From a virus (taxonomy: Duplodnaviria; Caudoviricetes), in IMG/VR virus record IMGVR_UViG_3300022221_000009, positions 1 to 57,503 of that record: a stretch of 57,503 bases of DNA; one strand, given 5' to 3'. Below the pieces are notes generated by a model. That model was not told the origin of the DNA, did not search any database, and was given only the letters and a program-made list of their open reading frames with translations. The stretch's first letter is position 1. Every line of letters begins with the position of its first letter. The position numbers and the translations under genes were made by a program. Shown piece by piece: positions 3,169-40,100 of this stretch.

Positions 3169-3290
3169 TAGTCGCTACCCAGCAAATCAAACGCATCGAC
3201 ACCAATACCACAGGATGCACATGGATTTTTACCTGAAGCCAATGCACCAATAGCAAAGTCACGTCCACTCCCCCACGCTATAATAGTCAA
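3168..3290 (-). pseudogene. Internally deleted HslV/proteasome-like Ntn-hydrolase remnant (40 codons)
   Basis: TTG start overlapping the terL stop: MTIIAW-GSGRDFAIGALASG...CGIGVD. Keeps the N-terminal Thr and the AWGSG motif with the middle missing. Confidence 0.6.
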
Positions 3291-4756
3291 TACCCTGCTC
3301 CTGTATCTGCTGGCTCATGCTGTCGAGAACCGACGCTACCACCGGTTAAAAATGGATTGCCGATCACTTCAAAGCGATACACAGATCGCACGTCATAACG
3401 TAGTGCATCCAGTAAGTGATCGTTTTTCTTCACAATCTTGCCTTTTTCATCTCGGTGATATAAATCGAATTCCTGTAAGGTTTGAACACAATGCCCCATA
3501 ATTTTAAGACGGCCTGTTGCGATACGCTGATAGCAGTCCAATATCCCAGCGGCGACCGAATTGTCAGCCAACTTGATATCAAGTCCGGCTTTCCCGTATT
3601 CCTTAATGACCTTCTTGCCGTCCAGTTCGTTGGACTTGTTACCGGACGGATCCCCCCAGATGGGAATATTGCCGAAGGCCTTGATGGCCGCGGCATGGTT
3701 GACCGGTGGTAACTGGCCCTGCTTGTACTCACCGTAGACGTAGATGATGTCACCCTCTTCGTCATAGCATTGCACACTAGCGGCAGTCCAATTCCAACCG
3801 AAGTCCATTCCAATCCCACGAGGCCAGTTTCTCGGTACCTGGAATGTCGGCACCACAACTTGGTCACGCACAAACGGGTAAATCTTGCCTGCACCCAGTT
3901 GTGGCCGACCATGTTCTCGGGCTTCGAGTTCATGTGGCGGCAATTCCTTGCGCATTTCTTCGACGACTGCCGGCGACAACCAAGGGTTGTCCTGCCAACC
4001 GGCCTGGATGCGATATCGGTTACTGGCATCAAACTCATCACCGAAAAACATCATGGCCACATCGGACATGCCCGACAGCGGCGTCATGGTGAGATACAGG
4101 ATCCCTTCCGTATCGGCTATACGTTGATAGCACTCGTCATAAACACTTTTCGGCGGTTCTTCGTCCAGGTGTATCCAGTGTAGCGATACCGCCTGGAACT
4201 TCTTTCGTCCTTGATCGTACGATTTAAAGTCAATCTCGGAGACACCGCCAGTCACATGCTGGATAGTGACCACATCCACCGCGTCGGCCACACCCCGCTT
4301 GCGCGTGATACTGAGTATCAGGTGTTTGGGTATTAACCCGGTGCCCCACTCACCCGGGGGACCCAGCAGGACACGCTGAATACCATCACGGGTACTTTCG
4401 GCAGTATCCGAAGCGACTCGACCGCGTGTATGCTCAGTAAACCGCCTGCCTTTCCACCACCATGGATACAGCCCGGTGGCGTGATACGCATCCTCGGCGC
4501 CACCACCAACACTTTTCCCAGTGCGGTTACCACCAAAGAAAGCGCGGACCCGGTGCAGGAATCCAGCTAAGTGAAACGCGACCTGCTTATGGTGCGGCCG
4601 GTTGAACTTCTTACCAACCGGATCGTATTGCTCCAGTTTGACCAGCTTACGGCGCTTCTTTAACGCCTCCAGCAGTACCAGCTTACGTTCAAGTGGGTTG
4701 TCCGGTAGCTGCTCGACTAAATCACGGGCGACGCTGGCCGAAACGGGGAAGTTCAT
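3287..4756 (-). CDS. terL: Terminase large subunit
   Basis: GGNRTGKS Walker A, WIHLDEEP Walker B, LTMTP, and nuclease motifs GMDFG and NDHLLDALRY. Confidence 0.95.
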   Translation of the reverse strand: MNFPVSASVARDLVEQLPDNPLERKLVLLEALKKRRKLVKLEQYDPVGKKFNRPHHKQVAFHLAGFLHRVRAFFGGNRTGKSVGGGAEDAYHATGLYPWWWKGRRFTEHTRGRVASDTAESTRDGIQRVLLGPPGEWGTGLIPKHLILSITRKRGVADAVDVVTIQHVTGGVSEIDFKSYDQGRKKFQAVSLHWIHLDEEPPKSVYDECYQRIADTEGILYLTMTPLSGMSDVAMMFFGDEFDASNRYRIQAGWQDNPWLSPAVVEEMRKELPPHELEAREHGRPQLGAGKIYPFVRDQVVVPTFQVPRNWPRGIGMDFGWNWTAASVQCYDEEGDIIYVYGEYKQGQLPPVNHAAAIKAFGNIPIWGDPSGNKSNELDGKKVIKEYGKAGLDIKLADNSVAAGILDCYQRIATGRLKIMGHCVQTLQEFDLYHRDEKGKIVKKNDHLLDALRYDVRSVYRFEVIGNPFLTGGSVGSRQHEPADTGAGY

Positions 4757-5392: not shown

Positions 5393-5540
5393 AGTTTAGT
5401 TGTCCGCAATTTTAGCGACGTTGGGTAACAAGTTCATCACAGTAATCTCTTACCTCGCAGTCTAAGTTTCCAAATTTGATACGCATATCAATCCTCAATT
5501 AAATTCCGCACCCACAGCCGCAGTTCCACATCTCCAGGCC

Positions 5541-5572
5541 AAAAAAAACCCCGTCCATTTGAATGGCGGGGC
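5541..5572 (-). terminator. Intrinsic terminator in the late leader (tR'-like)
   Basis: Minus strand GCCCCGCCATTCAAATGGACGGGG followed by U8, upstream of terS; fits Q-type antitermination. Confidence 0.65.
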
Positions 5573-5932
5573 TTTAAAACACAGCTAGATGGTCTGAACC
5601 TAACTATTGTTGACGACGATTCGGTGATGAGCAAGTTGTGGTATCAACCAGGAGACCCAACCATGGACCTCCGTAGTCACCTTGCGCAGCATACAGATAA
5701 ATCCTAAAGTAGATTAAACAATAAATCAACCAAATGTAATCTGAAGTAGTATTGTTTGTGATACTTAAAAAGGGTGCCCTGCATCCTGCAAGGCTTGGGA
5801 ATGGGTACAACTTCATGTTGTATTTCTGTCTTGGGAGAAACAGAAATAATAATTTATCACAACAAATTTGTTTGTGTAGCTTATTTTTTCTGGGTATCCG
5901 GATTTTATGATTGATATATGATTTATAGTCGC

Positions 5933-6133
5933 CTACAACAGCCTGTTTTTCTCGTCAATCAACAGTCGATTGATGAGGTCTGTCTCTGTCACATCATCCC
6001 CTAATTTGAGGCAGATTTTTAAAGCCTCGTTGGCCTCAGGCGAGAGCCTCCAGGATTTGCGGGCGCCGCCCGCGTGTTTGAGCGCGGCGATAGAGTCGTT
6101 TACTCGCTGCGTGGCTGTGCGTGGTTTAGTCAT
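5933..6133 (-). CDS. Small ribbon-helix-helix-type regulator (candidate Aca)
   Basis: 66 aa; strand RKSWRLS then two helices (PEANEALK..., TETDLINRLL). Last gene of the cassette; its stop codon lies within the left IR. Confidence 0.6.
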   Translation of the reverse strand: MTKPRTATQRVNDSIAALKHAGGARKSWRLSPEANEALKICLKLGDDVTETDLINRLLIDEKNRLL

Positions 6134-6639
6134 TTAGTTGGCTCCAGCGAGCGAAACGCCACACGCTCCATTTTGCGCACCTCGTCGGCCATTTCATCCG
6201 GCACGCAGACAGTGACACATTGACACTCGCGCGGACAGCCCACAATGCCGCGATGTTCGCGCAGGATTTTGTAACACCAGGTCCGCACGTCCTCGCGTTT
6301 TTTGCCTGTGATGTTAGCAACGTGTTTGTGACTGTGCCCCTCCACCAGCACCAGCCGCGCCGCCTCCAGGCTGGCGGGCGCGATCTTGGTGTAGCTGGCG
6401 GCAAGGTCAAATTGCTCGGGGGTCATGACTCGATATTCAAACATACCCTTAATAAATCCATTCAAGATTTCATCCGGCATTTCGGCCGCTCTGTCATTAT
6501 CTAAATCTGTTCGCCAGCCTTTAATTTTTGAATTCGTTGCAACAATGCCGCCGAGTTTGAATATCTCAATCGTTAAGTCTCTATCTCTACCGACGCCCGT
6601 CAAGTGCAGCAATTTTTTAAATATCTCGTTGTTGTTCAT
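6130..6639 (-). CDS. DUF1456/YehS-like domain fused to a KorA/TrfB (Aca4-like) HTH repressor
   Basis: N-part MNNNEIFKKL...DEILNGFIKG resembles DUF1456. C-part MTPEQF...EAARLVLVEG...VTVCVPDEMADEVRK follows the KorA/TrfB pattern. Confidence 0.7.
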   Translation of the reverse strand: MNNNEIFKKLLHLTGVGRDRDLTIEIFKLGGIVATNSKIKGWRTDLDNDRAAEMPDEILNGFIKGMFEYRVMTPEQFDLAASYTKIAPASLEAARLVLVEGHSHKHVANITGKKREDVRTWCYKILREHRGIVGCPRECQCVTVCVPDEMADEVRKMERVAFRSLEPTK

Positions 6640-6658
6640 TATCTGACCCCGCTTACTT

Positions 6659-6686
6659 ATTAGAAGCTGCCTATGCGGCAGCGTAA
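6659..6686 (-). CRISPR. Solitary type I-F CRISPR repeat-like unit #2 (not an array)
   Basis: Minus strand TTACGCTGCCGCATAGGCAGCTTCTAAT; the CTGCC-GCATA-GGCAG-CTT core matches the Cas6f hairpin of I-F repeats. Confidence 0.7.
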
Positions 6687-6712
6687 ATTATCTTTGTATG
6701 AGTCAGTTAGTC

Positions 6713-6955
6713 TTACAAAAGATTCTTTATTTCAAGAACATACCTGATCAAATAATGCTCTAAAGTTTCGCCGTTTTCGTCTTCTTTATCGTCCGGACAA
6801 CGAAACCATACCGCATTAACTGTTTTATACTCTACATCTTCTTCTTTTGACGCCCAATTGAATAAAACTCTTTTGAAACCCTGGTTGTTAAATTCTGCAC
6901 ATTCAAGCATAAATGAATGTGCATCGCTTTCGTTTTTAAAATTTAAGACTGGCAT
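6713..6955 (-). CDS. Small acidic protein, anti-CRISPR candidate (80 aa)
   Basis: Start re-called to ATG 6955 (MPVLNFKN...) with GGAGA RBS at 6964-6968; lies between two I-F repeats, upstream of Aca-like genes. Confidence 0.6.
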   Translation of the reverse strand: MPVLNFKNESDAHSFMLECAEFNNQGFKRVLFNWASKEEDVEYKTVNAVWFRCPDDKEDENGETLEHYLIRYVLEIKNLL

Positions 6956-6975
6956 TATAAGTTTCTCCGTTTCAG

Positions 6976-7005
6976 TCCCGGCATGACCCCGGCCGGGAAT
7001 CGGGG
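6976..7005 (-). promoter_or_regulatory. 5'-UTR H-type pseudoknot, copy 2
   Basis: CCCCG-AT-TCCCGGC-CGGGG-TCAT-GCCGGGA immediately upstream of the RBS. Confidence 0.6.
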
Positions 7006-7033
7006 TTTTTAAGCTGCCTGCACGGCAGTAAAT
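7006..7033 (-). CRISPR. Solitary type I-F CRISPR repeat-like unit #1 (Racr candidate)
   Basis: Minus strand ATTTACTGCCGTGCAGGCAGCTTAAAAA; 24/28 identical to the I-F repeat GTTCACTGCCGTACAGGCAGCTTAGAAA. Confidence 0.8.
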
Positions 7034-7057
7034 TTGTTTATTGATACAACACACTAA

Positions 7058-7345
7058 TTAGCTCACATGCACAAAATAAATAGTTTCTCGTGTGAAATCC
7101 TCTCTAACTTCGGATGTGTCGTTATAATCTTGATCTATGTCATCGCCAGATCCGATGTGGTCAGAATAGCCCACGCCATGAATTTCCAGCATTACCTCGT
7201 TTTGTATATCATCAAAACACTGAGCAATAAAATCGCTGTTTTCAAAACCGCTGCCCGCGCCGTGCGGTACAAGCGGTGCTTTAATTGCGGAATCAAAGTA
7301 TTCTTGACACCGCTCAACCATTAACTCTTTTGCATTCGTGCTCAT
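7058..7345 (-). CDS. Small acidic protein, anti-CRISPR candidate (95 aa)
   Basis: First gene after the strong promoter; AGGAGA RBS; D/E-rich. Confidence 0.65.
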   Translation of the reverse strand: MSTNAKELMVERCQEYFDSAIKAPLVPHGAGSGFENSDFIAQCFDDIQNEVMLEIHGVGYSDHIGSGDDIDQDYNDTSEVREDFTRETIYFVHVS

Positions 7346-7363
7346 TAATGTATCTCCTATCGG

Positions 7364-7394
7364 TCCCAGCGTCAGCCCCGGCTGGGAATCGGGG
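7364..7394 (-). promoter_or_regulatory. 5'-UTR H-type pseudoknot, copy 1
   Basis: CCCCG-AT-TCCCAGC-CGGGG-CTGAC-GCTGGGA; A-U replaces the G-C pair of copy 2. Confidence 0.6.
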
Positions 7395-7421
7395 GAGCTA
7401 AATATCTCAGCTCATTGGTAC

Positions 7422-7450
7422 AGTGTAGTCGCCTACGGTCTATTTGTCAA
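7422..7450 (-). promoter_or_regulatory. Near-consensus sigma70 promoter of the cassette
   Basis: TTGACA (7445-7450), 17-bp spacer, TACACT (7422-7427); overlapped by the quasi-palindrome GTAGTCGCCTAC. Confidence 0.8.
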
Positions 7451-7482
7451 CTATAAAATCCGGATACCTTTTTTCTCATCCT

Positions 7483-7740
7483 TTAATTAAACACCATCAC
7501 CCAGGCCGCACGCAGCCGCTGTCGAAAGGTCATCCCTCCTATCAGCTGCGATCCAAGCGACATTAAATGCACAGCCATGACTGGCAAAGGCGTCCCTCGC
7601 TTGGTCTTGAAACCGAAATACTTTAATTGCTTACCGTCGTGGTAGATTATCTGCAACACCTCAACGCCAGTCTGCCGGTGCTTATCCAGCTTGAAGCCTT
7701 TAAACACCGGGCCTTTATAATTTGATTTTTTTTTGCTCAC
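7483..7740 (-). CDS. Hypothetical protein
   Basis: Basic ORF; GTG start coupled to the upstream stop. Confidence 0.5.
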   Translation of the reverse strand: MSKKKSNYKGPVFKGFKLDKHRQTGVEVLQIIYHDGKQLKYFGFKTKRGTPLPVMAVHLMSLGSQLIGGMTFRQRLRAAWVMVFN

Positions 7741-7931
7741 ATCTCTACTCCAGGAAACCAACGGTGATGATCACCAAGCCGGCGTTGAGTCTCCGGCAAC
7801 ACCTTCTCTTCCATCATTTCATAGTCGTTCAGGGCTTCCAGTACTCGTTCTTCTAACTCTTTTTGTGCCTGAAATTTTTCTATATTTCGTTTAGCTACTC
7901 CCAATTGCTGTTCGACCAGGGTTTCAAACAT
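7737..7931 (-). CDS. Probable C-terminal fragment of the split J-domain gene
   Basis: Frame stays open upstream to about 8005 (IRAIERYKGLKNKVRKKSEGPN-M). Confidence 0.45.
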   Translation of the reverse strand: MFETLVEQQLGVAKRNIEKFQAQKELEERVLEALNDYEMMEEKVLPETQRRLGDHHRWFPGVEM

Positions 7932-7999
7932 GTTTGGTCCTTCTGATTTCTTGCGGACTTTGTTCTTTAGTCCCTTATAGCGTTCAATTGCTCGGATGC

Positions 8000-8278
8000 T
8001 TAAAGAGTCTCTTTCTGGATAGCTATACCAAACAAAGCAATCAACTTATTCCTGACCTCAACCCAACCATCAGGGATATCACTCTCCCCGGTTTCATCAT
8101 ATTTAGCGCGTCGATTAACATCGTACAGAATTTCATAGGCATTATTCAGTTCGGCAAAAGTGTCCTTATCGCCACCGCGATCCGGGTGACACCGCATCGC
8201 CAGCCGTTTGTAGGCCGTCTTGATTTCTGCTTGAGTTGCATCCTTAGACACACCCAATACTTCATACGGATTTTGCAT
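8000..8278 (-). CDS. DnaJ/J-domain protein (possibly truncated)
   Basis: [15 protein letters not shown]...[15 protein letters not shown]...NAYEILYD; intact HPD motif. Confidence 0.85.
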
Positions 8279-8687
8279 TTTGTTTTTTCTCCTGTGTATA
8301 AAGCCAGACATCGATCCAGCGTAGGCCGTCTTTGACTTTGGCTCTAAATGTTGATTTTGATATTCCAAACCACGTGAGGTTATTAGATACACCTTCTAAT
8401 CCGATATAGTTTGCAATCAGGATTTGTGCTAATTCCTTGTAACGAGGATGGTCGCTCATTTCATGCATAGCTTTTTCTATTTGTTCAGCATCATCATTGA
8501 CAGGTGGTAACTTCTGGCCTTTGCTGCGAATCATAACGCCGCCCATTTCGATTAATTCATATTCCAGCGTTTTAGATGCATATCCGTTTAATTCTCCATC
8601 CTCACGCCGACAGGCCCAGTTCGCCCACATCTTAACCAACATATCGATGTATTGGAGCCGCTCGTCATCGTACTGGCGCATGCTCAC
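8262..8687 (-). CDS. Antiterminator Q-like late regulator
   Basis: [12 protein letters not shown]-terminus and C-terminal HTH-like [11 protein letters not shown]; near the end of the delayed-early arm. Confidence 0.55.
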
Positions 8688-27928: not shown

Positions 27929-28195
27929 ATGACTTGTACCGGCTTAACAATATTTCAGGTTGAGATAGTCAACTTCATTGCCATGGCGATCACCATGGGG
28001 CCAGCCTTATTGGCCGGCCTTTATGTGTTTGCCCGAACTACCCGGAAAGTGGAAAGCCAGTACCAGACCCGGCATGGCTCGATGGAAAGACGAATCGCGC
28101 TAAACTTTGCCCTGATACCGGGCTTGATCGCCTTTGTATTATCCGCGGCCTTTCTTTCACTCCTGACCCAGCACCTTTTTTGCGTGTTCCCGTAG
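27929..28195 (+). CDS. Small two-TM membrane protein
   Basis: Two hydrophobic helices; convergent with the giant gene. Confidence 0.5.
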   Translation: MTCTGLTIFQVEIVNFIAMAITMGPALLAGLYVFARTTRKVESQYQTRHGSMERRIALNFALIPGLIAFVLSAAFLSLLTQHLFCVFP

Positions 28196-31100
28196 ATTCT
28201 CCATTTTCCGTTTGATCACCTGCTTCTGTTTCAGGTATTCCTGACCATCAATCAGATTCCGTTTTTTGTCCGACTCCAGCTGGAACATTTGACTACTTAG
28301 TGCACGCTGGATTTGATCGATATCCCGCGCATGCCAGGACAGACCGTATTTCACGTCATGGGGGGCCAGCTTGACACCGGCAGAGGATAAGAAAGCATAG
28401 CCGATCCCGTACTCACGGCCCAGCATGTCACGGCCACCCTTGATCGACCGTTCAATCTTTTGCCAGTACCAGGACTCCGGTATCCAGGGTGCTGCCGGCA
28501 TCCACGATCGCCACGCCCAGCCACCCAGCTTGGCTGCAGACTCCCCAGTGGTATCGATTTTCGAATCGACGATCTCCTTGCCGGTGAAGGCCTGCTTGTT
28601 CAAAGCCAATTCCCCAGCCAACATCAACGGGCCACTTAGCTGCAATGGCGCCGGTATCGGGAGTGCCCACTGACCCTGATTCATATCAAAGACATCCCCG
28701 GCCGGTATCCAGCGACGGATATCCAGGAAGACCGGGTTACCGTGTTCATCGTGCCAGGGCATGCGCATCATGCGAGGCACACCCGGCAGCCAAGTATTCC
28801 CTTGTGCTTGTTCACGCATGGAGCGGCGTTCCTCGTCCTCATCACCGGGCGATAGCATATAACCCAGGGCATTCACCATATAGGCAATCGTGGTGTACTT
28901 GGCCAGCTTCCACGGCCGTTCCGCAATGGATTTGGCGATCACCGGCACGGCCCGGTAGGTGTAGGCGATAAAGGGCAGCACAGTCCCGCGCATGGCGTTG
29001 ACCCAGGGTGCCCGAATATCGTAATTCAGGAACTGTTCACGCGCCGCACGGGCAGAGACATCCGGTTGATCACCGAGGGATAGACGGCGCATATAGGTGG
29101 CCATACGGAAAATCTCATCTTCCATCGAGTACCAGTCAATCATCCGTTTATCAGCCTTACCAACCCATTTCCAGATTGATTCGTACATCTGACTGAGGTT
29201 ATTCAGGCGACCCTCTGCCCCGCTGGCCTCGTCCAGATTCTGGCTTTTCAACTCTTCCAGGAGCGGGTCGAGGATCTGCCGGCGCACTTCCTGATCCACA
29301 AAGTTACTGCCAAACACCCCGTGCTCAACAGCATCCCGGTAGTCCTTGGTTTCATGGCGCAGGGCATACCAACCACGATACAGATCCTGCCAGCGAATAT
29401 CGGCCATATCCATAAAGATGAAGTTGGACATGATGTTATTCATGTGCACCACTGGGTTGCGGGCGGTCTTGTTCAGTTTCCACTGGGTCAGCAGCTTGCG
29501 CCACAAGCCCGGGACCTGGAGCCGACGCAGTTCATTCAGGTCACGCCAGATTTCCGCACGCACATACTTGCCGGCCAGAGGACCCCAGAGGCGTTTCGTT
29601 GTCCCGGGTAAGGTGGATTCTGGGATCTGCACCCATTCATAACCCACATACGTGGCCATGGCCCCCTTGGGGGTGGTGATGGTACCGGAATCGGGCGGTC
29701 CTTCTTCGGACCATACCCAGTTGGGGTTTTTGGCAATATCCGAGTAGAACCGTGCCGTGGACACATCATTGGCCAGCAACATATAGGACTTGGCCAGGAC
29801 ATACCGTGCATCGAGGATTTCCCCCATGGATTCACGCTCAGACTGCGTAAAGTCACGCCAGAGGGTGATCTTGTTGCCCTTGTAGCCGCGGGCCTCCCAG
29901 ATACCCTTGTTGTCCCAGCCCTTGTACATATTGGGCAGAGGCACGTCTGCAGGCCAGTAGCGACGGTCCAGGACACGCGGCTTGCGACCGGGCTCACCCA
30001 TTCCTTCGAAGGTTTCTGTGCCCTGCCCGACAGCCTGCACCTTGTCCAGCACGATAAACTTCATCCCCTGCAGGGAGCCGTCCGTCTTGTTTTTGAATTT
30101 CTGACGGCCCCACCAGTCAACCGGAACCGCATCAAGCAATTTGTCCTGCTCGATATTCATATTCATGCCCCGCTGGCGGAGCTGACTGCCAATCATCTTG
30201 GCTCGGCGGTTGGATAGCTGGTTATTGACCCAACGGCCCAAGCCGGTCTGTTCAATCTCATGCTTTTTGTACGCGCGGTGCAACCAGGTCCCCCGGTGGC
30301 GTTCATAGGTTTCCGCATCCAGCCAACCCAGTTCCACCAGTTCATGCCCCAGCTGGTCCAGGGCCTGACGAACCGGTGCCGCGATATCGTTCCACTCGGA
30401 ATCGGGAATTTGTTCACCTTCCAAAATGGCTTTGAAGACCTTGGCCTCTTTGACATCCATGCCCCGGTTCATCATGGTATTAATGAAATCAGCCCCTTCC
30501 ATCTGGATCCGACGCTTCTCGGCCTCACGCTCGAAGTCACGCTGTTTGTACTCTTCGGTCAGACCGTATCGATCGATCAAACCCGCACGTAAATGTTCAA
30601 GGAAAGGATTCATCCACCCCATATAGCCATCGGTATTGAACTTGCGATCCATCACCAGTTTTTCCAGTTGGTTATAGCCCTTCTTGGTTTTATCGGGCAC
30701 ACCGGCAATGTCGAAGGCCTTGCGGAAGACGCGATCAATTGGCTGACCTTTGCCCAGGCGGTCGAGGAGTTTCTTCTGGTTATCGGGGAGATCGTCGCGA
30801 TGGTCTTTGGAGATAGGGTCACCCAAGGAGAACATGACTTGACCTTGTTCCAGAACGGCGTCACGCATTTTTTTTGAGATATCAATGGAATGGGTAACCA
30901 AAGGATCTAATTGGTTTTCGTTTTTATTTACGAAAGCATCTGCTTCTTCTTCTGAGGCAAAAGTATCAAGGATATTTTCATCCATATCTACTACATGCCA
31001 TTCTCCCCGATTGTTACCCATAGCGAAGAGGCCTTTTAGGTATTTACGTTTACCAATATTAGTTTTACCAACTTTAGCCCCCCATTTTTTGACATACTTG

Positions 31101-34100
31101 TTGACAGCTGAAGGTAGTATTTTATCATAAAACCCTTTCATGCCTTCGCCGCCGACTTTGAGCTGCTCACCTTCTAGGTGATACGATGATCCGCCATTCT
31201 TGTTATCCCATCGTTTATTTTTTATTAATTTGTCCGCCGCTTCCTTCCCGATTAAATCAGGCAAATCTTCTTCTTTTACATCGCTTTTACTGATTACGCG
31301 ATCATGGTCTTTGTAAGCATACAGTGTCTCGGTACCACTATTGTATTCAACACTATCAATCTGCTTACTCAAGTCATACCGATCTGCCTGCTGTTCTCCG
31401 GTAGTCCAGGCGATCCGGTCAAATCCGTTCTCAGCGGCATAGCGGATCATGCGCTTCATAGCCAACAGGGGCCAGGTGGTTTTAAAGGGGGCATCAGGAA
31501 CAGTGTTTTTGGTATAATCTGAATGCTCCATCATCTCCTGTCGATAAGATTCTATATCGGTAACAGTGCTATCTAATTCGAAAAATTGACGCACCTCTGA
31601 ATCGCTAGGCACATCTTTTTTATACCCTTTCTTCCTGCCCTCCTGATGCCAGTCACTCTGTACTTCCTCGACAAATAACACACGTTTGCCCTCTGCGTCT
31701 GTGCGCTCATTGAAACGGATGTGGGCCAGAACATTGGGCTCATCGAAGTGGCTGGACTTGTAACTTTCACCATCCGGTGCGCTCAGTGCCACTTCTGGCA
31801 CCTGGTCTTTAATATCAAGTTTTTCAGATTCGGATAAATCATCCCAGCTAGGTTCGCCACCTTTTCGCATGAAGTTTTCATAGAATTGTTTTGCGCTGGC
31901 ATCTTCTGATAACTTTTTAACAGGCAACGTCAACAACATCTCCCGATAGTTTTTGCCTCCGGGTAATTGATATCCAGCAAATTTTGCTACTGAACTTGGT
32001 CTATGTGCAGCCTCTTGTAGTTTTTGTAATTTTTCTATAGCTGCCTTTGGCCATTCATAGGTTTGAGTTGTGCCGTATTTTATTTCCATTTCACGGCGAT
32101 ATTTATTTAATTCCTCAAGCTCTTTGTATTTGCCTGATATTTTTTCCATCTCTTCGATCTGGATATTATTCACCCGCAGGTAATCCAGCACCTGGTCCTT
32201 GCTTACCTTACCCTCTTGTTCCTGCAGCCACTCAACCAGTCCGGACCATTCCAGTTCTTCCTGTTTGAATTCGCCTTTCTTGGCCCATGACTGCACGGTC
32301 ATTGCCAGTTGCTTGGCTGGACCTGAGTTTGGTAATTTCTTAGCCAGGACAGATTGCAGTTGGCTGTAGAAAATTGGTGCATTAACTGAATACGAGACAC
32401 CTTCGCTTACAGTTTCCCCTGCTACAGCCGTTTCTTTTCGGATATGATTCGCTGCATCCTGCAGGATGACACCCATGTCGGCTTTGGTCAGTTTGAGATT
32501 AAACCCAAGTTGTCGCATCAAATCACGAATCATTGACACAATACGGTCAAAGAGTTGCTTGGCTTTTTTACTCAGAGTGTTGGCATGATAGGATTCAGCC
32601 AGTTTGGCAAGATATTCCTCGACAGCTTTTAATCTGTCGGATTCTTTATCGAGATCGAAATTGTAGCGTTTGGCAATATCGACAAGACTTGATCGACCAA
32701 CAGCCAGATAGACTTGTTTTAATATAGTAACCGCTTGATCACCGAAGCCTTTGAAACCGGCATGCAGTAATACTTCATGGAAGATGGCGCGCTCAACGTC
32801 TGCATCATTTAATAAGTTACCCGCAACCAGATAAACTTCACCGGTTTGATTATCGACAAAGCCCTTGATTCTATTTTCTTTGCCTTTTATTTGATTCTTG
32901 AATTTATCAGGCACGTCCTCGATAGAGGATAGAACGGTGATCTTCGGTTTGTTTTTCCAGCTGCTTGTCAGCCGATCAACAATTTCCTGTACCCCAGAAA
33001 CAGAAAACCCGGTTTGTGGCCGGGTTTCGGTATTGGATAGTTTGGCACTTACTGGTGGTCCTGATCCCTCAGTTCCCTCAGACGCTGCAGACTGTCGCGC
33101 TTGTTTTGCTGCAAGGAGGCGATCTCGGACGGACTCAGTTTCCGGTACCTTGACACGATCGAGGTATCGGGCTTCTGATTCTGTGAGGCTGTCAAATCCG
33201 TAGCCGAATTCTGAGACAAACCATTGTTCAAATTCATTTCCATAGCGTTCACGTAGTTTCTGTAAAATCTCCTGACTTGGTGCAAGTTTAGATGAATACT
33301 GCTTACCCATCAATGCAGACGTTAGAATAACCTCGCCACCCTGAGATTCAATGTAGCCCCGCAGGCTGGCCAGCGTTCCGCCTTGCGTTAAAGTATCGTC
33401 TACAATCAGGTACTTACGGCCTTTTTCCACTTCGCCGGTAAAGGTCGGCTGATTGGCCAGACGGTAGAAGCCATCTGACCCGCCTCGACCAATTTTCTCT
33501 GTCTGAACAATCGACTCGTCAACCTCCAGACCCAATTCATTGCCAATTACTTCGGCATACGCCAGGGGGATCTGGTTCACGCTGACCCGTTCCTCGGCAT
33601 GAATGGCCACCACAATGGGATAGTTATCACCAATAGCCCCGGACAGCTTATTAATGTCTTCATCCTCAATCAGATCCCGGGCCAATCGGTAAGCGGCCTC
33701 GATGTCGCCATCCTTCGCGGCACGGTAATCAGGGTGTCCCTGGGCTTCCTTGGCCGTTTTCAGGATAACTGCATTCGGGTAGTTTTCTGGCCATGGCGTG
33801 CGGACCTTATCACCAAGGGAAAAGCTGACGGATTCATCGCTGGGTAACGCTTCGACCATAAAGGCTTCGGCATTCTCTTTTTCCTTGAATATAAAACCTG
33901 TAGCGTAACGTGAATAATAACCATCATGCTTTTTAGCCAGCGATTTCAATTCCATATAACGATCACGTGGTACCCGGTCAACCATCTTAATGGTCCAGAT
34001 AGGATAATGATCTCTTGTGTGTTCACCCTCCGTCATTTCCAGTCCGGTGCGCTTAGCCTCTTCCTGGGCCTTGGCCTCGGCTTCCTCGGCTTCGCGTTCT

Positions 34101-37100
34101 TCCTTGGTCTTGGTTGGCTCATTCCGTGGATCGATAGAAAAGTCTTCTATTTCATCAAAAAACTCATGAACGGATTCAAAGCTACTGAAATCATAATTCG
34201 CTGACTGTGGCGCATCTTCCGGATTATCCTGTCGGTCCAGCACAACAACCCGTGTAGCCACCTTGGTTGCGGCCCGCTCAAAGGTCGCGGTGGGTAAAGT
34301 AATATCAGCCGCCAGATAAATATTCTCAGTCAACTTGTTGTCATACATAAGTTTATCGAACCGTTTGTCAGCCATACCCCCACGCGGAATGATAGCTGTA
34401 ATCCGGCCACCGTTTTTCAAATGTTTGATCGCTTTCTCGATATGACGAATAGCATCACTCCCGCCTTTACCGAAAGGGGGATTCATGGCGATCACATCAT
34501 ACTTGTTGATCAAATGATGATTTTCAAAGGTATCCCGGATCACCTTACCATTCGTGACAACCGCCAATTCACTGGCCAGTCGGCCGGACGGCTCAATAGC
34601 GGTATTATTTGAATGACCAGGGAAGAACCGCGCAATGGCACCATGACCGCCTGACGGCTCCATGGCATCTTCATTCGGCTTGATATTGGACCACTCGACC
34701 ATCTTTAGACCAAGGGGCTCAGGTGTCGCAAAATAATCCTTGCCCTCAGCGGATTTGTTGCGAGAAGTTTTCTTGCCTCGGGCCAAGTAATAGGTTTTGG
34801 CCCGATCAAAGTCTGATATCTCGCGCTGATTCCGGTCGCCTTCTTTCCCGCCTTTCCCTTGCCCTTCTTTGGGTGATTCTTCTACTGGGTTCAGATAGCC
34901 TTCCTTGAATGCAATATCCATGTCCCTGGCTGTCAAACCCATGGCCAAATTTTCAGCGGTACTGACACGCTGACTGATCGTGTCAGCATAAGCAAATCGT
35001 TCAAAGCTGGTGTTGATCACCGGGTATTCAAAGATTGCATCGGACTGAACACCAATCCGGTACACCCGGCCCTCCATCTGGATCGCGTCAGTCGGACTGG
35101 TCGGCAATCCCAACACCATCACCACACGCTGGCGCTTGCCCGTGATATCGTGAAGACTGATCCCTTCCTTACCCGCCATCTTCTGCACAACAAGAATAGA
35201 TAACTCGTTGTTATCGTTATTAAAATCCTTGATCGCGGCACGTCGGTCCTTTTTCGATTGACGACCATTGAACACCGCCACCTTTTCGCCAAAATGTTTT
35301 AACAGGGTATCAACCACAGGACGCAATCCAGATAGGTCAAGATTCACTAAATCAGAATGATGGTTTTTAAAGTGGGTTATTTCCTGTTCAAGTTCTTCTT
35401 CCCCATTTCCAACAAATCGGAAAGGATGTGCCGGAGCCCCTTCGATATAGTTGTGAAACACAACCACTTTACGTCCCAATGCCAGGTGCTTTTCAATTCG
35501 CTCAATGCTGGCCTTGGCCTTGATCGTTTCCAGTAAGCGATGCTTATAAATCCCCTTGGTTTTCTGACGCAGGTGCTCACTCAGTTTCGGGTAAGATTTG
35601 TGATCAATGACATCGTACATCCCTCGATCAATCTCGGTACCGATATCCGGATCCACCAGCACAAATTCACGGGCATAATCTTGTTCAACTTCAATAGCAC
35701 GACCGGATAATGAACCAGCTTCAACTAACTGCTGATTAAAGTTGCGCTCCAACAAACCGACATCGATACCAGCCTCGGGACGTTCAGCACGGTTATAGCG
35801 CATGTGGTACCCGAAATTCGATACCAGGAACTGATCAAAGTTATCCCCGGCGTTATAGTGGGACGTAGATGATTCGTCATATCCTTCTGTGGTATCGAAC
35901 ACATAGCCATCGGCATAGAACACATTCTTATGACCAGCCCACGGAGTCGCTGACAAAAAGACAACCTTAGTCGGGCTTTCCTCTTCCCATTTGCGGTACT
36001 TGTCGGCCAATTTATCGGCCTGTTTTTCAAGCAATTTGTACTCTTCCTTATATTTTTTTCTGGCCTTATCCTCTGCAGCAAAGCCATTTAATTTTTCTAT
36101 TTCTTCCAGTCGTTCCGCTTCTTTTTTAACCTTGGTTTGATATTTTGCATACTCATCCCGCAATTCATTGCGGCCACGCACCTTGTATTCAAAGTCTCGA
36201 TGATTGGTAATCGTGTAATGCTGCTCAGTGGTATCACTTTTCTTACCCTGCATATTCTCCATAAGCTTGTGAGACTCATCGTACAGAATCAGATCCCAGT
36301 GACGTTCGAGCAGAGCTTTGTTTTGGCGGAAATTGGCATACGTCGTAACGACCGCACCCTCACCAGCTGACACGACATTAGGTAGAGGTTCGGCTTTGAT
36401 AAACAGGTTTTTCGCATCAATCGCCCAATCAGTCACCTTGGCCTCAGAAGGGGTGACGATCAGAATATTGTTCTTACCATCCTTTGCAAACCGTTTGGCT
36501 ATTCCCAGGCCGGTATAGGTCTTACCGGTACCGGTACCATTGGTAAACATCATGCCTTTGCCATTGGCCTCATAAAACCGCTTTTCGGTTTTCAGGACAT
36601 CATCTTGCTGTTCGGGTGTGAGGAACGGGAGAGTTTCACGGATATTATCAATATCCTGGTGAATGTTTTTGATACGTTCAGCTTTGCGCTGGCGATCTAG
36701 TTTGGCTTGGTGCTCAGATTCCGTAGCATACGGTTCAATGTGGAGGCTTGTTTCTGGTTCAGTCTGTACTCCTGCGTCATCAGTTGTGTCGCTTCGTCCG
36801 GTGTCTGTACGTCCGGCAGGGCCTTCCTCAGATCTAAATTGTCCGTCTTGGCTAAATAGGTCGAAATTGCCTGATTCTCCAACATCGGCAGGGCTATCGT
36901 CTGATACGCGACGATCACCTTGTTGTCCACCTTGTCGGCTTTCAGTAGATTGGCTTGATGTTCCAGCGTCCTTTCCAGTTCCTCGTCCTGCATCACGAAC
37001 AGCATCTTCGCTGCCTGGCTCTTGGCCAGTGGTGCTATCTGATTCCAAATTGTCGCCGGTACTTGAAACATTATTGGTCTCCTGCTTTGAGTATAACTCA

Positions 37101-40100
37101 ATCTCTTTGGTGGTCGATAACCCTTTATTATCAAAATCGGGCCAGTGACGTACTCCCTCATACCAAGCACGCAAGTAGGGTTTTACGGCATCCCCCAGAT
37201 CGGCGATCATAGCCTTGGAAAAGTCTGAGAATTTCCGGGCACCGGCCTCGATGTGGTACCCGGCCAGAGTAATACCAGCCTGCATCATTTCCGGATCAAG
37301 GCCGGCACTGACCTGTCCCAGTTTCTTTTTCAGAAGTTCGCGGGCTTTGTCTGCGGCGTCTTGGGTGAAGATGGCATTTGTGCTACCGTAAGTAGCTGGT
37401 TTCTTGGGTTTGGCTTGCTCGACTTCCGCCTCAACCATACCATGACTTTTCAAATAAAGCCGGGCTTCATTTTCCGTTTTAAACTGCTTGGCAGGAACAG
37501 GATCAAGGATAGATGGGCCGCGTGGTTTACGTGACAACACGACTGACTCATGGTTGGCGCCCTTGATGCTAAACCCTTTATTGCCGGCTGGAACTATCTT
37601 GTAAGTCAATGTCTTGCGGGATTTTTTCTTAATCGCCCTCTGCTTATCCGGCTCGGCCACCCGCTTTTTTGTGTCTCCATTGTGTATCCAATCCTTGAAG
37701 GCCTCCAGGGTGTATTCCTTGACGCCACCAATGCCCTGCCAGCCTTTTTCATAGTTAGCCAGGTAAGCCTTGCGTGCGGCCGCTTCATTCTCGAAGCCCA
37801 TCATCACCTTGTGCTCATCGAATCGACGAGACTCGGGATTAACCTGATCGACAACAAACACAGGTAGATCGGCATTCTCGGCCTGATCACTCAGGAACAC
37901 ATCAACGTGATCACCGTCTTTACCTTCGGTTTTCTTGATGTAGCCGTAATGATTGGCCATCTTGATCGACCACTTCTTACCACCTTTATCAGTACCGCTA
38001 CGCTCAGATCCCTTCGGGTTCTCGATGGAGATATCCAGACCATGTAACCGGATATGGCCAAGCTTATAGTTTCCGGCTTTCTTCTGGGCCTGACTGGGTT
38101 CAGGGTGATCGTTGTTTGGGGAAGTGGCGGCTTCGTGAGCAGCTTCGTCGACAGGCTTTGGTTTTTTAGACTCACTTTCTTTTACTCGCTGCCGTGCCTC
38201 TTGCCTTATTTTATTTGCTTTATCTCGGTATGTGACTGCAAGAACGGCATCACCCAGTTCGCCAAGATTCTCTTGCTCCTGAGCCAGTCGGTCATAATTC
38301 GCAGCCCTTCTATCTGCTCCTTTAATGTGTTGTTCTGATGTAGTTCTTTTGATTTTTTGTGAGGATTGCCGCTTTTTACGTTCCTCCCAGAGAATATCCG
38401 GATCTATTGCTTCGTATTCGGATCCTTCTTCAGTTTTACTTGTTATCACAACCCCTGCTTTACGGGCGCTATCGACCTCATCAGACTTGAGGTTCCTGAT
38501 CGGTATCAGCCCCTGTGCAGTGAGAGGAAAATCTGGAAATTCACTAATAAGAGAATCAGGCAAATCAGATAATTGAGCTGACTGTTGGGCGGGAGCCTCA
38601 CCCTGGCTCCCTTTTTTCCTTTCATCCTTGGTTTCGGGCTTCGCGGGTTGTGTATCCTGGGTAGGTTCAGCGGTACGCTTACCTTTCATCTTGGAACGTA
38701 AAGTACGCTGTTTTTCGGTGTCACCTGAACGAAGAGGTTCTTCTTCCAAAGAAAAACCGGCTTGCGCCGGCTTCTTATCTGATTCTGTTTTTACCTTAGA
38801 TCCTGAAGGCTTAGGGGGTTCAGTCTCACTAAGGTCAACATCCTGACCTTGTGGGGCAGGGGTTACTTCTGGCGTGACTTCGGCTTCTTGCCTTCCTGCC
38901 GTTTCTGTCTGAACTCCTGCAGGGCCAGGTCGCGCTGACTCTGTTCCTCCTGCTGGGGTTGCGATGGTTTGGGTTGGTTGTTCATCGGTCTGTCCTGTCA
39001 GTAAGTTGGCCAGGGAACGAAAGGCTGCATCATCTGTGGTTTGGCGTTCCAGAATGGCTTCGGCCTGATCGGCAATATCATCGCCCATTGACCGGGCCTG
39101 TTCAAGCAAATCATAGAACGTCCTGCCCTCGGCATCCATGGCGGGGTGATAATCCTGTTCATCATACTCCCAATTGTCCTCATGGGTGAAGCGACTGAAA
39201 CCATACGTCCGGCGCAATTCACGGGCCTTGTCCAGCTGCTCACGCGCATAGTCCAGGTGTTCCGGGCTGGTACGCTCTCCCTGCACTTCATCCAGGAAGG
39301 CCGTCACGACACGGGCCTCACGTATCCCCAGTTTCTTGGCATTCATAGCCTTATTAATGGCAGTCTGAGCCTGCTCAACTGTGACTTTGGTTTCAGGATT
39401 TGAGGCAAGCGACTGATACCAATCAGGATTAATCGAGGAAGTCCGCCCCGTGATCTTACCGTGTTCATCTTCGATATAACCGATATCACCGCCTTTTATC
39501 AGGGAATCAGCCATTTGCTGGACTTTGACCCGGAAATCCTCACGGGCCAGACGCGGATCAAACAGGTTTTCGGGCAGGCGGGACTGCATGAATCGACGCC
39601 CCTCTTCTACGTCAGTCTCAAGTCCGGCACTGATAGAGGGAGGGCCAGGAGGCGCAGCGGGGCCTACCGTGACTGATTGCATCGGATCCTCGAAATCAAT
39701 CCCCCCTTCATACTTATATATAGGGTTCGCTGGTTGGCCTTGTTGATCCATAGGTTCCAGTTCCAGGTCAGGCGCCGGTTCCACAGGGGTCATTTCCGGA
39801 GCCTCGAAATCAATACCCCCGTCATACTGTACGGATTCATTGATGGCAGGTTCAGGAGTCCCGATCACATCTTCCGCGGCCAAAGGATCGGATAACGAAT
39901 CATTACCCATTGGCTGATCGGCAGCCGATTGACTGTCATTTGGATCACGTTTGCCCTTGTTCAGCTTCATACCCAAGGCTGCACCCAATGAATTCAACAG
40001 GAAACCCAGTGTCCAACCCACTTCCCCGCCACGCTGCACACCTTCGGTCAAATCCTGTTCCGGGTTATAGAGTTGCTGGGCAGCCAGGTTGCCACCAAAC

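Follow-up and report, generated by a model that had tools for sequence, protein, structure and literature searches.

The duplicated motif and its predicted folding

The window analysed here, an entire IMG/VR virus record of 57,503 bases (IMGVR_UViG_3300022221_000009; completeness estimate 92%), carries a short GC-rich motif that occurs twice, each time in front of a small open reading frame (ORF) in an operon resembling those of anti-CRISPR (acr) genes. All genes and long ORFs of the region lie on the minus strand, so the motif is to be read on that strand. The two copies, each with the leader tail that follows it, are arranged as listed below.

7394..7364, minus strand: motif copy 2, CCCCG-AT-TCCCAGC-CGGGG-CTGAC-GCTGGGA; stem 1, 7394-7390 with 7380-7376; loop 1, 7389-7388; stem 2, 7387-7381 with 7370-7364; loop 3, 7375-7371
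7343..7363, minus strand: gene 1 leader tail; CCGAT, Shine-Dalgarno AGGAG (7358-7354), 8-nucleotide (nt) spacer, ATG (7345-7343)
7005..6976, minus strand: motif copy 1, CCCCG-AT-TCCCGGC-CGGGG-TCAT-GCCGGGA; stem 1, 7005-7001 with 6991-6987; loop 1, 7000-6999; stem 2, 6998-6992 with 6982-6976; loop 3, 6986-6983
6953..6975, minus strand: gene 2 leader tail; CTGAAAC, Shine-Dalgarno GGAG (6968-6965), 9-nt spacer, ATG (6955-6953)

The initial annotation had described two copies of this motif, each with two stems and each ending shortly before a Shine-Dalgarno sequence, and we found both as described. All twelve proposed pairs are standard in both copies and eleven are invariant. The sole changed pair, stem 2 position 5, is altered on both sides, from G-C to A-U. 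The covariation that had been claimed amounts to this one compensatory pair, and with only two (paralogous) sequences its control had no statistical power. From the end of copy 2 it is 5 nt to AGGAG and 18 nt to the ATG at 7345 (95-residue ORF, gene 1), and from that of copy 1 it is 7 nt to GGAG and 20 nt to the ATG at 6955 (80-residue ORF, gene 2). As to extent, the motif stands as it was first given, and the homologous unit proved longer: it spans from CCCCG to the start codon (49/50 nt). Since the similarity runs through the Shine-Dalgarno to the ATG, the duplicated unit is a leader of about 50 nt.

With up to three mismatches allowed, the 19-mer CCCCGATTCCCRGCCGGGG matched twice in the 57.5-kb window against 0.01 matches expected, and none of 100 shuffles gave two or more. 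The differences between the copies are unevenly placed. Stems and loop 1 are identical at 24 of 26 positions, both differences falling in the one compensated pair, whereas loop 3 and the tail agree at 16 of 25 (2/26 vs 9/25 differences, Fisher p = 0.019); the tail by itself agrees at 14 of 20. The 30 nt upstream of the copies are unrelated (16/35 gapped columns identical). Within the loop of stem 2, the five bases complementary to CCCCG are invariant, whereas the other 4-5 bases differ. The arms of stem 2 are 9 nt apart in one copy and 10 nt in the other, a variation tolerable for an RNA loop. Copy 2 lies in a predicted untranslated leader, approximately 21 nt downstream of the inferred transcription start, and the copies stand in different frames relative to their own ATGs (18 vs 20 nt); the conservation is therefore not explained by coding.

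The 7-base-pair (bp) stem 2 hairpin was the nested minimum-energy fold given by RNAfold for both copies and for both longer leaders. In a rough model, which sums stacking energies and adds a fixed penalty of 9.6 kcal/mol, the pseudoknot reached -18.1 and -19.7 kcal/mol, compared to -11.4 and -12.2 kcal/mol for the best nested folds, i.e. about 7 kcal/mol lower. Dinucleotide shuffles attained the pseudoknot energy in 1/300 and 4/300 cases and the gain over the nested fold in 0/300, in a test whose boundaries had been picked to fit the pseudoknot. The stem 1 hairpin on its own gave -7.8 and -8.0 kcal/mol, and in both longer leaders RNAfold paired part of CCCCG with bases adjoining the Shine-Dalgarno. 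A scan for intrinsic terminators found nothing at either copy, where the minus strand continues with CUGAAAC or CCGAUAG and no U-tract. A terminator on the transcribed strand was excluded, T5 being present solely on the plus-strand complement of copy 1.

The surrounding operon

The motif copies are embedded in the following features, given in the order of the operon.

7422..7450, minus strand: predicted sigma-70 promoter, TTGACA-17 nt-TACACT; promoter scan 10/12, inferred start near 7415
7425-7436, minus strand: inverted repeat GTAGGCGACTAC within the 17-nt promoter spacer
7395..7413, minus strand: hairpin A, GAGCUGA-GAUAU-UUAGCUC, adjoining copy 2; in the RNAfold minimum-energy and centroid structures of 7418..7340
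7058..7345, minus strand: gene 1, 95-residue acidic ORF, anti-CRISPR candidate from its context
7006..7033, minus strand: type I-F CRISPR-repeat mimic (solitary repeat unit 1); Rfam CRISPR-DR4 36.7 bits (gathering score 35), model positions 1-28 of 28
6713..6955, minus strand: gene 2, 80-residue acidic orphan ORF
6664..6682, minus strand: second I-F repeat-like hairpin, CUGCC-GCAUA-GGCAG followed by CUU; CRISPR-DR4 22.4 bits, under the gathering score, E = 0.084
6130..6639, minus strand: gene 3, 169 residues, N-terminal DUF1456 and C-terminal KorA/TrfB-type helix-turn-helix (HTH) domain
5933-6133, minus strand: 66-residue ORF, the fourth of the operon, its ATG overlapping the gene 3 stop; no Pfam or PHROG match

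Hairpin A thus occupies the 5' end of the predicted leader and is followed by copy 2 and gene 1, while copy 1 stands between the I-F mimic and gene 2, and the second I-F hairpin between genes 2 and 3. Copy 2 is located between the predicted promoter and gene 1, in an operon with a KORA-domain HTH gene downstream that is putatively of the anti-CRISPR-associated (Aca) kind.

The gene 1 product had no Pfam or PHROG family and no match in the PDB at E ≤ 0.001. A protein search returned three proteins including itself, the relatives being P0008 (73% identity, encoded on a contig of 4,847 nt) and P0009 (67%, contig of 565 nt). Its AlphaFold2 model is a three-helix bundle with a predicted local distance difference test score (pLDDT) of 86.1. 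For gene 2, gene callers reported a 113-residue protein (P0010) from a GTG at 7054, in a frame that crosses the I-F repeat mimic and motif copy 1. We consider the ATG at 6955, with GGAG 9 nt upstream, to be the more likely start. The gene 2 product matched no Pfam, PHROG or PDB entry, its database match was its own 113-residue form only, and its structure model was poor (pLDDT 62). As neither protein matches a known family or a solved structure, genes 1 and 2 are acr candidates by context only.

Gene 3 matched Pfam KORA with E = 3e-10 and DUF1456 with E = 2.2e-5 (25 bits, slightly below the cutoff of 27), and its PDB matches were KORA-domain chains (E = 1.7e-5). It is probably the operon regulator, with an Aca4-type domain. 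In the available part of PMC9410906, Aca4, a type I-F-associated Aca, is listed under the Pfam family KORA, and putative Aca-binding repeats are found in the core promoter. By analogy, the locus is best read as an anti-CRISPR operon whose genes have no tested relatives. A full-text literature search returned no paper joining DUF1456 with anti-CRISPR. The 66-residue ORF has, judged by eye, a strand-helix-helix pattern like that of ribbon-helix-helix repressors.

An inverted repeat of about 45 bp brackets the four-gene cassette, at 7425-7468 (minus) and 5893-5936 (plus). It consists of GGTATCCGGATTTTAT, exact at both ends, then TTGACA or TTGATA, then GTAGKCGMCTAC. The downstream copy resembles a weaker inward-facing promoter (TTGATA-17-TACAAC) and could be a second operator or a cassette boundary.

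The I-F mimic at 7033..7006 abuts motif copy 1 with no gap, whereas the second hairpin, between genes 2 and 3, retains only the Cas6f-type hairpin and CUU. In the window, the I-F hairpin pattern occurred only at 7013-7028 and 6666-6681, approximately 325 nt apart with gene 2 between them. This I-F repeat variant is found across many Gammaproteobacteria and beyond. According to PMC10651486, solitary repeat units serve as RNA anti-CRISPRs, are found clustered with acr genes and may be transcribed together with these; both I-F mimics of the window look like co-transcribed RNA anti-CRISPR candidates. RNAfold also gave a 7-bp long-range helix, CUGACUC/GGGUCAG, between 6700-6706 and 6643-6649 (minus), which encloses the second I-F hairpin and covers G-rich sequence lying 4-10 nt upstream of the ATG of gene 3 (z = -1.84; 8/200 shuffles fold as well). 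Cas6f cleavage would part the two arms of this helix.

A distant DUF1456-domain relative (50.7% identity across 70 residues) is encoded on the Aeromonas salmonicida plasmid pAsa_2939. The leader of its operon contains an I-F repeat (L166, 1937-2010; CRISPR-DR4 38.9 bits), with a degenerate hairpin, CTACCGCACAGGTAG, found by eye 23 nt beyond it, an arrangement resembling a CRISPR RNA (crRNA)-like mini-array. The palindrome ATGCGAATCGCAT is found two times within that locus's promoter region.

The portal-like protein is less than 30% identical to its listed matches, the window has no close relatives among deposited phages, and blastn of the motif region against phage and plasmid records gave no match. 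About 0.6 kb upstream of the operon, at 8000-8392 (minus), lies a gene for a J-domain protein (Pfam DnaJ, E = 3.4e-21). On a Glaesserella parasuis plasmid (L168, 763-2246) the gene order is J-domain protein, hypothetical protein, DUF1456 protein, which hints at a shared accessory gene set. After the 66-residue gene, approximately 330 nt within 5540-5932 (minus) have no convincing ORF. This stretch ends with a strong terminator-like hairpin near 5545-5575 (minus; GCCCCGCC...GGACGGGG, then T8) and could be an untranslated RNA. Elsewhere in the window, a single ORF of 4,306 residues occupies 28157-41077 (minus).

Searches for relatives and alternative explanations

The initial annotation had also put the motif forward as a search handle for new acr genes, with a covariance model and Rfam as checks. 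The exact 19-mer (with R) had no match in IMG/VR, and none of its 22 matches in GTDB genomes had the 3' arm. A structure-shaped pattern gave no match in IMG/VR and one in JGI metagenomes, which was dismissed as a GC-rich chance match. When stem 1 and loop 1 were fixed and stem 2 left free, IMG/VR yielded 22 matches, of which 0/22 had all seven stem 2 pairs. The covariance model was run over 330,005 bases in 29 sources, a selection from about 170 loci, and recovered no copy beyond the two on which it was trained (56.7 and 55.7 bits); the best remaining match scored 19.5 bits. In an Rfam cmscan of 6000-8000 (E ≤ 10), no riboswitch or ribozyme family lay over either copy and no family reached its threshold there. 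The rows over copy 1 were CRISPR-DR18 (E = 2.2; its 20.2 bits fall short of the gathering score, 50) and the terminator-like PsrR1, a plus-strand match with 17.9 bits; copy 2 had no Rfam CRISPR match. As IMG/VR, GTDB genomes and JGI metagenomes yielded no other genuine copy, the motif is unusable as such a handle.

Searches anchored on proteins gave no syntenic relatives. The gene 3 protein found no relatives in IMG/VR and phage records, nor did the gene 1 alignment in IMG/VR and genomes, and the DUF1456 relatives likewise led to no match. A 489-residue ORF at 3287-4756 led to two distant loci (33% and 29% identity) with neither the motif nor the I-F hairpin. The motif did not follow any of the solitary I-F repeats that occur among 59 stretches from genomes. 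The sequencing runs containing the stretch were two sediment-metagenome runs only, possibly the record's own source, and no RNA run was listed. As far as the searched collections show, the element appears restricted to one phage lineage.

The motif can be explained in several ways other than as a pseudoknotted leader RNA. In the simplest, only stem 2 forms, giving a plain leader hairpin, and CCCCGAU and CGGGG are read single-stranded by a protein or the ribosome, or as a competing hairpin. Stem 2 is indeed the nested minimum-energy fold and carries the sole covarying pair, stem 1 is invariant, the stem 1 hairpin is also stable by itself, and in the longer leaders part of CCCCG pairs with Shine-Dalgarno-adjacent bases. 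On the other hand, conservation falls precisely on the complementary 5+5 all-G-C blocks, and the estimated pseudoknot energy lies below that of any nested fold by a gain that no shuffle reached; we regard the plain hairpin as rather unlikely. The invariant block may instead be recognised as double-stranded DNA, namely as a 19-bp palindromic operator, CCCCG-N9-CGGGG, bound by the KorA-type or the gene 4 protein and serving as a roadblock both behind the promoter and between genes 1 and 2. The block is exactly 19 bp long, its inverted ends of 5 bp being spaced alike in both copies, and the operon encodes an HTH repressor-type protein. Such an operator leaves unexplained the conserved 3' arm of stem 2 with its compensatory change and the 9- vs 10-nt arm spacing; its sites would fall around +21 to +40 and in an intergenic gap without a promoter, and the promoter spacer carries a different repeat, GTAGGCGACTAC. 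An operator of this kind is very improbable. It is also conceivable that the motif is a functionless by-product of duplication or cassette exchange, gene 2 having come with the leader of a related operon, so that the similarity would reflect descent and chance. The duplication covers the whole leader to the ATG, beyond the fold, the ~45-bp inverted repeat around the operon suggests a shuffled cassette, and no homologue shows deeper conservation. In one variant, the plus-strand complement of copy 1, which reads CCCCG-N9-CGGGG and then TTTTT, would incidentally serve as a terminator; the plus strand of copy 2, however, has no T-run, and the long ORFs of the region are all on the minus strand. 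The differences between the copies mostly spare the stems and loop 1 (p = 0.019) and the stem changes compensate; we hold a functionless origin to be improbable.

A further explanation starts from the two I-F repeat mimics already present at the locus, and from the clustering and possible co-transcription of such mimics with acr genes (available text of PMC10651486). The motif could be an RNA decoy for a second CRISPR-Cas type, in which copy 1 (the hairpin and ACUGAAAC) imitates a ~37-nt repeat of the Cas6 type with a AUUGAAAC-like 5' handle, or it could be part of a crRNA-like RNA, in which the 32 nt after the I-F mimic serve as a pseudo-spacer. Copy 1 is followed by CUGAAAC, so that the last stem base and the tail read ACUGAAAC, which resembles the 3' end of real 37-nt repeats ending in CCGGGA[CT]TGAAAC; 57 stretches match the two-unit pattern, mostly multi-copy arrays. 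A further locus caught by the repeat-tail pattern (L130) was rejected as a tandem repeat, unlike a CRISPR array. Copy 1 also gave the weak CRISPR-DR18 alignment, which remained far under the gathering score and required an inserted loop. Moreover, the real repeats have loops of about 4-5 nt, as read from consensus strings, and come from cyanobacteria, haloarchaea and Chloroflexi, which are not I-F hosts. Copy 2 has no CRISPR match and no GAAAC tail (ACCGAUAG), and therefore the feature common to both copies is not the repeat-like part. With regard to the crRNA-like variant, type I complexes leave every sixth base unpaired, and, counting from the I-F handle, the 19-mer varies at a single position, base 12. 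Against this variant, no I-F repeat precedes copy 2, the next I-F hairpin after copy 1 is ~325 nt on, with none within spacer length, and the 19-mer has no plausible genome target (22 chance matches). Viral crRNA-like RNAs also mature to 46-49 nt, according to the available part of bioRxiv 2024.10.29.618823. We find it distinctly unlikely that the motif is a decoy or a crRNA-like RNA.

A proposed leader RNA structure in a probable anti-CRISPR operon

In the reading that we favour, with a probability of roughly 0.45, the motif folds in the leader RNA of an anti-CRISPR-type operon and controls in cis the initiation of translation at both small ORFs. The motif would be the structured 5' part of a duplicated ~50-nt translation-initiation leader on a putative minus-strand transcript. 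In this RNA the 7-bp stem 2 hairpin would form, and the upstream CCCCG would most likely pair with the first five loop bases, CGGGG, to give an H-type pseudoknot (5 bp, 2-nt loop, 7 bp, 4-5-nt loop). Ending 5-7 nt before each Shine-Dalgarno, the fold would act in cis on translation initiation. Its most likely mode of action would be as an RNA operator for the operon-encoded regulator, the DUF1456+KorA protein, in the manner of the Aca2 and Aca1 leader hairpins. In a possible second role, the fold may set a fixed 5' limit, resistant to nucleases, for the ribosome-binding site; in copy 1 this limit would be 8 nt from the Cas6f-generated end of the adjacent I-F mimic. Stem 2 is probably real and stem 1 plausible but unproven, while the H-type pseudoknot, as modelled, is tentative, possible rather than probable.

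Apart from the choice of boundaries in the shuffle test, a number of observations weigh against a functional pseudoknot in the leaders. Given the base composition, the nested folds have ordinary energies (z = -0.35 and +0.31). Perfect 5+7 H-type candidates arose by chance at 0.225 loci per shuffled window, with at least one in 7/40 shuffled windows and at least two in 2/40; since by descent the two copies count as a single event, their capacity to pair is in itself a weak argument. The covariation consists of one event in two paralogous copies, and its observed value was reached in 249/500 shuffles. Stem 1 is invariant throughout, so it is conservation and complementarity only that speak for it. 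Loop 3, with 4-5 nt over a 5-bp stem, is close to what we take to be the steric minimum. The motif stems are unlike the promoter inverted repeats, whereas the RNA sites of Aca2 resemble its DNA operator. The contigs of the two sediment-metagenome runs showed no variants, and neither the covariance model nor the searches of IMG/VR, GTDB genomes and JGI metagenomes produced a homologue.

In terms of known phage RNAs, the T-even phage gene 32 mRNA has an autoregulatory leader pseudoknot in which stem 1 has about 5-6 bp, stem 2 has 7 bp and is crossed by a very short loop, and the stems are coaxial. The candidate fold in the window is likewise a compact H-type element in a phage mRNA leader, 5' of the ribosome-binding site; no sequence likeness is claimed. 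The gene 32 pseudoknot lies farther upstream than the candidate one of the window, and it nucleates cooperative binding of the protein that is regulated.

The closest parallel is provided by the RNA motifs in the 5' untranslated regions of acr-aca operons, which are bound by Aca2 and Aca1. The available part of PMC13551039 presents Aca2 proteo- and actino-motifs, an Aca1 hairpin, and predicted Aca10 and Aca12 motifs; the Aca1 motif ends ~20 nt before the acr start codon, and Aca2 motifs are also found between genes of an operon. It is because of this parallel that we adopted the cis-acting leader reading. As far as that text describes them, these motifs share with the window a structured RNA, in the window a predicted one, in the 5' untranslated region of an operon of small anti-CRISPR-type genes with an HTH regulator. 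The window element ends 18-20 nt before the start codon, compared to ~20 nt for the Aca1 motif, and its second copy stands between adjacent operon genes, as for Aca2. In contrast, the regulator in the window is a DUF1456+KorA fusion and not Aca1 or Aca2, the fold is GC-rich with a possible pseudoknot instead of a simple hairpin, and the element is dissimilar to the promoter repeats and excludes the Shine-Dalgarno. The published motifs are hairpins known from hundreds of operons, with significant covariation, whereas only two paralogous copies are known here, with 1/12 pairs compensatory. A leader-RNA role is plausible because a near-consensus promoter lies upstream, a KorA-type HTH gene belongs to the operon, and such acr-aca RNA motifs have been published. 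The kind of element has thus been described already, as structured leader RNA in acr-aca operons repeated between genes, while the fold itself is absent from Rfam.

Likenesses to RNA-based anti-CRISPRs concern mainly the neighbouring mimic. Like the RNA anti-CRISPRs presented in the available text of PMC10651486, the motif is a non-coding element in or beside an acr-type operon and putatively co-transcribed with it, and its neighbour at 7033..7006 matches the I-F model; the motif itself, unlike them, scores below the threshold of every CRISPR repeat family. The viral crRNA-like RNAs, in the portion of bioRxiv 2024.10.29.618823 available, likewise have an I-F repeat-like unit followed by a conserved non-coding stretch at a mobile-element anti-CRISPR locus. 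In the window, however, no second I-F hairpin lies within spacer length, copy 2 has no preceding repeat, and the stretch is strongly self-paired. The Aeromonas plasmid locus, unlike the window, does show the mini-array arrangement.

The I-F mimic and the pseudoknot leader may even form one module that couples host Cas6f activity to the expression of counter-defence genes, an idea that we consider a long shot. Under such coupling, a Cas6f cut at 7013 would produce a gene 2 mRNA with a 5' 8-nt crRNA handle capped by the pseudoknot, and the knot would block Cas7f/Cascade assembly from reaching the ribosome-binding site and shield the message. The long-range helix at the second mimic would hide the G-rich ribosome-binding site of the regulator gene until cleavage. 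The operon would thereby sense an active type I-F system in the infected cell.

Should the leader fold prove real and have a regulatory role, anti-CRISPR operons would be under post-transcriptional control not only by Aca1 and Aca2 but also by a KorA (Aca4-type)/DUF1456 regulator, and through a pseudoknot architecture as well. The locus would then be a compact case of an RNA structure set against a CRISPR-repeat mimic inside a protein-coding operon. This arrangement raises the question of how phages keep their messages translatable after Cas6f has bound and cut them.

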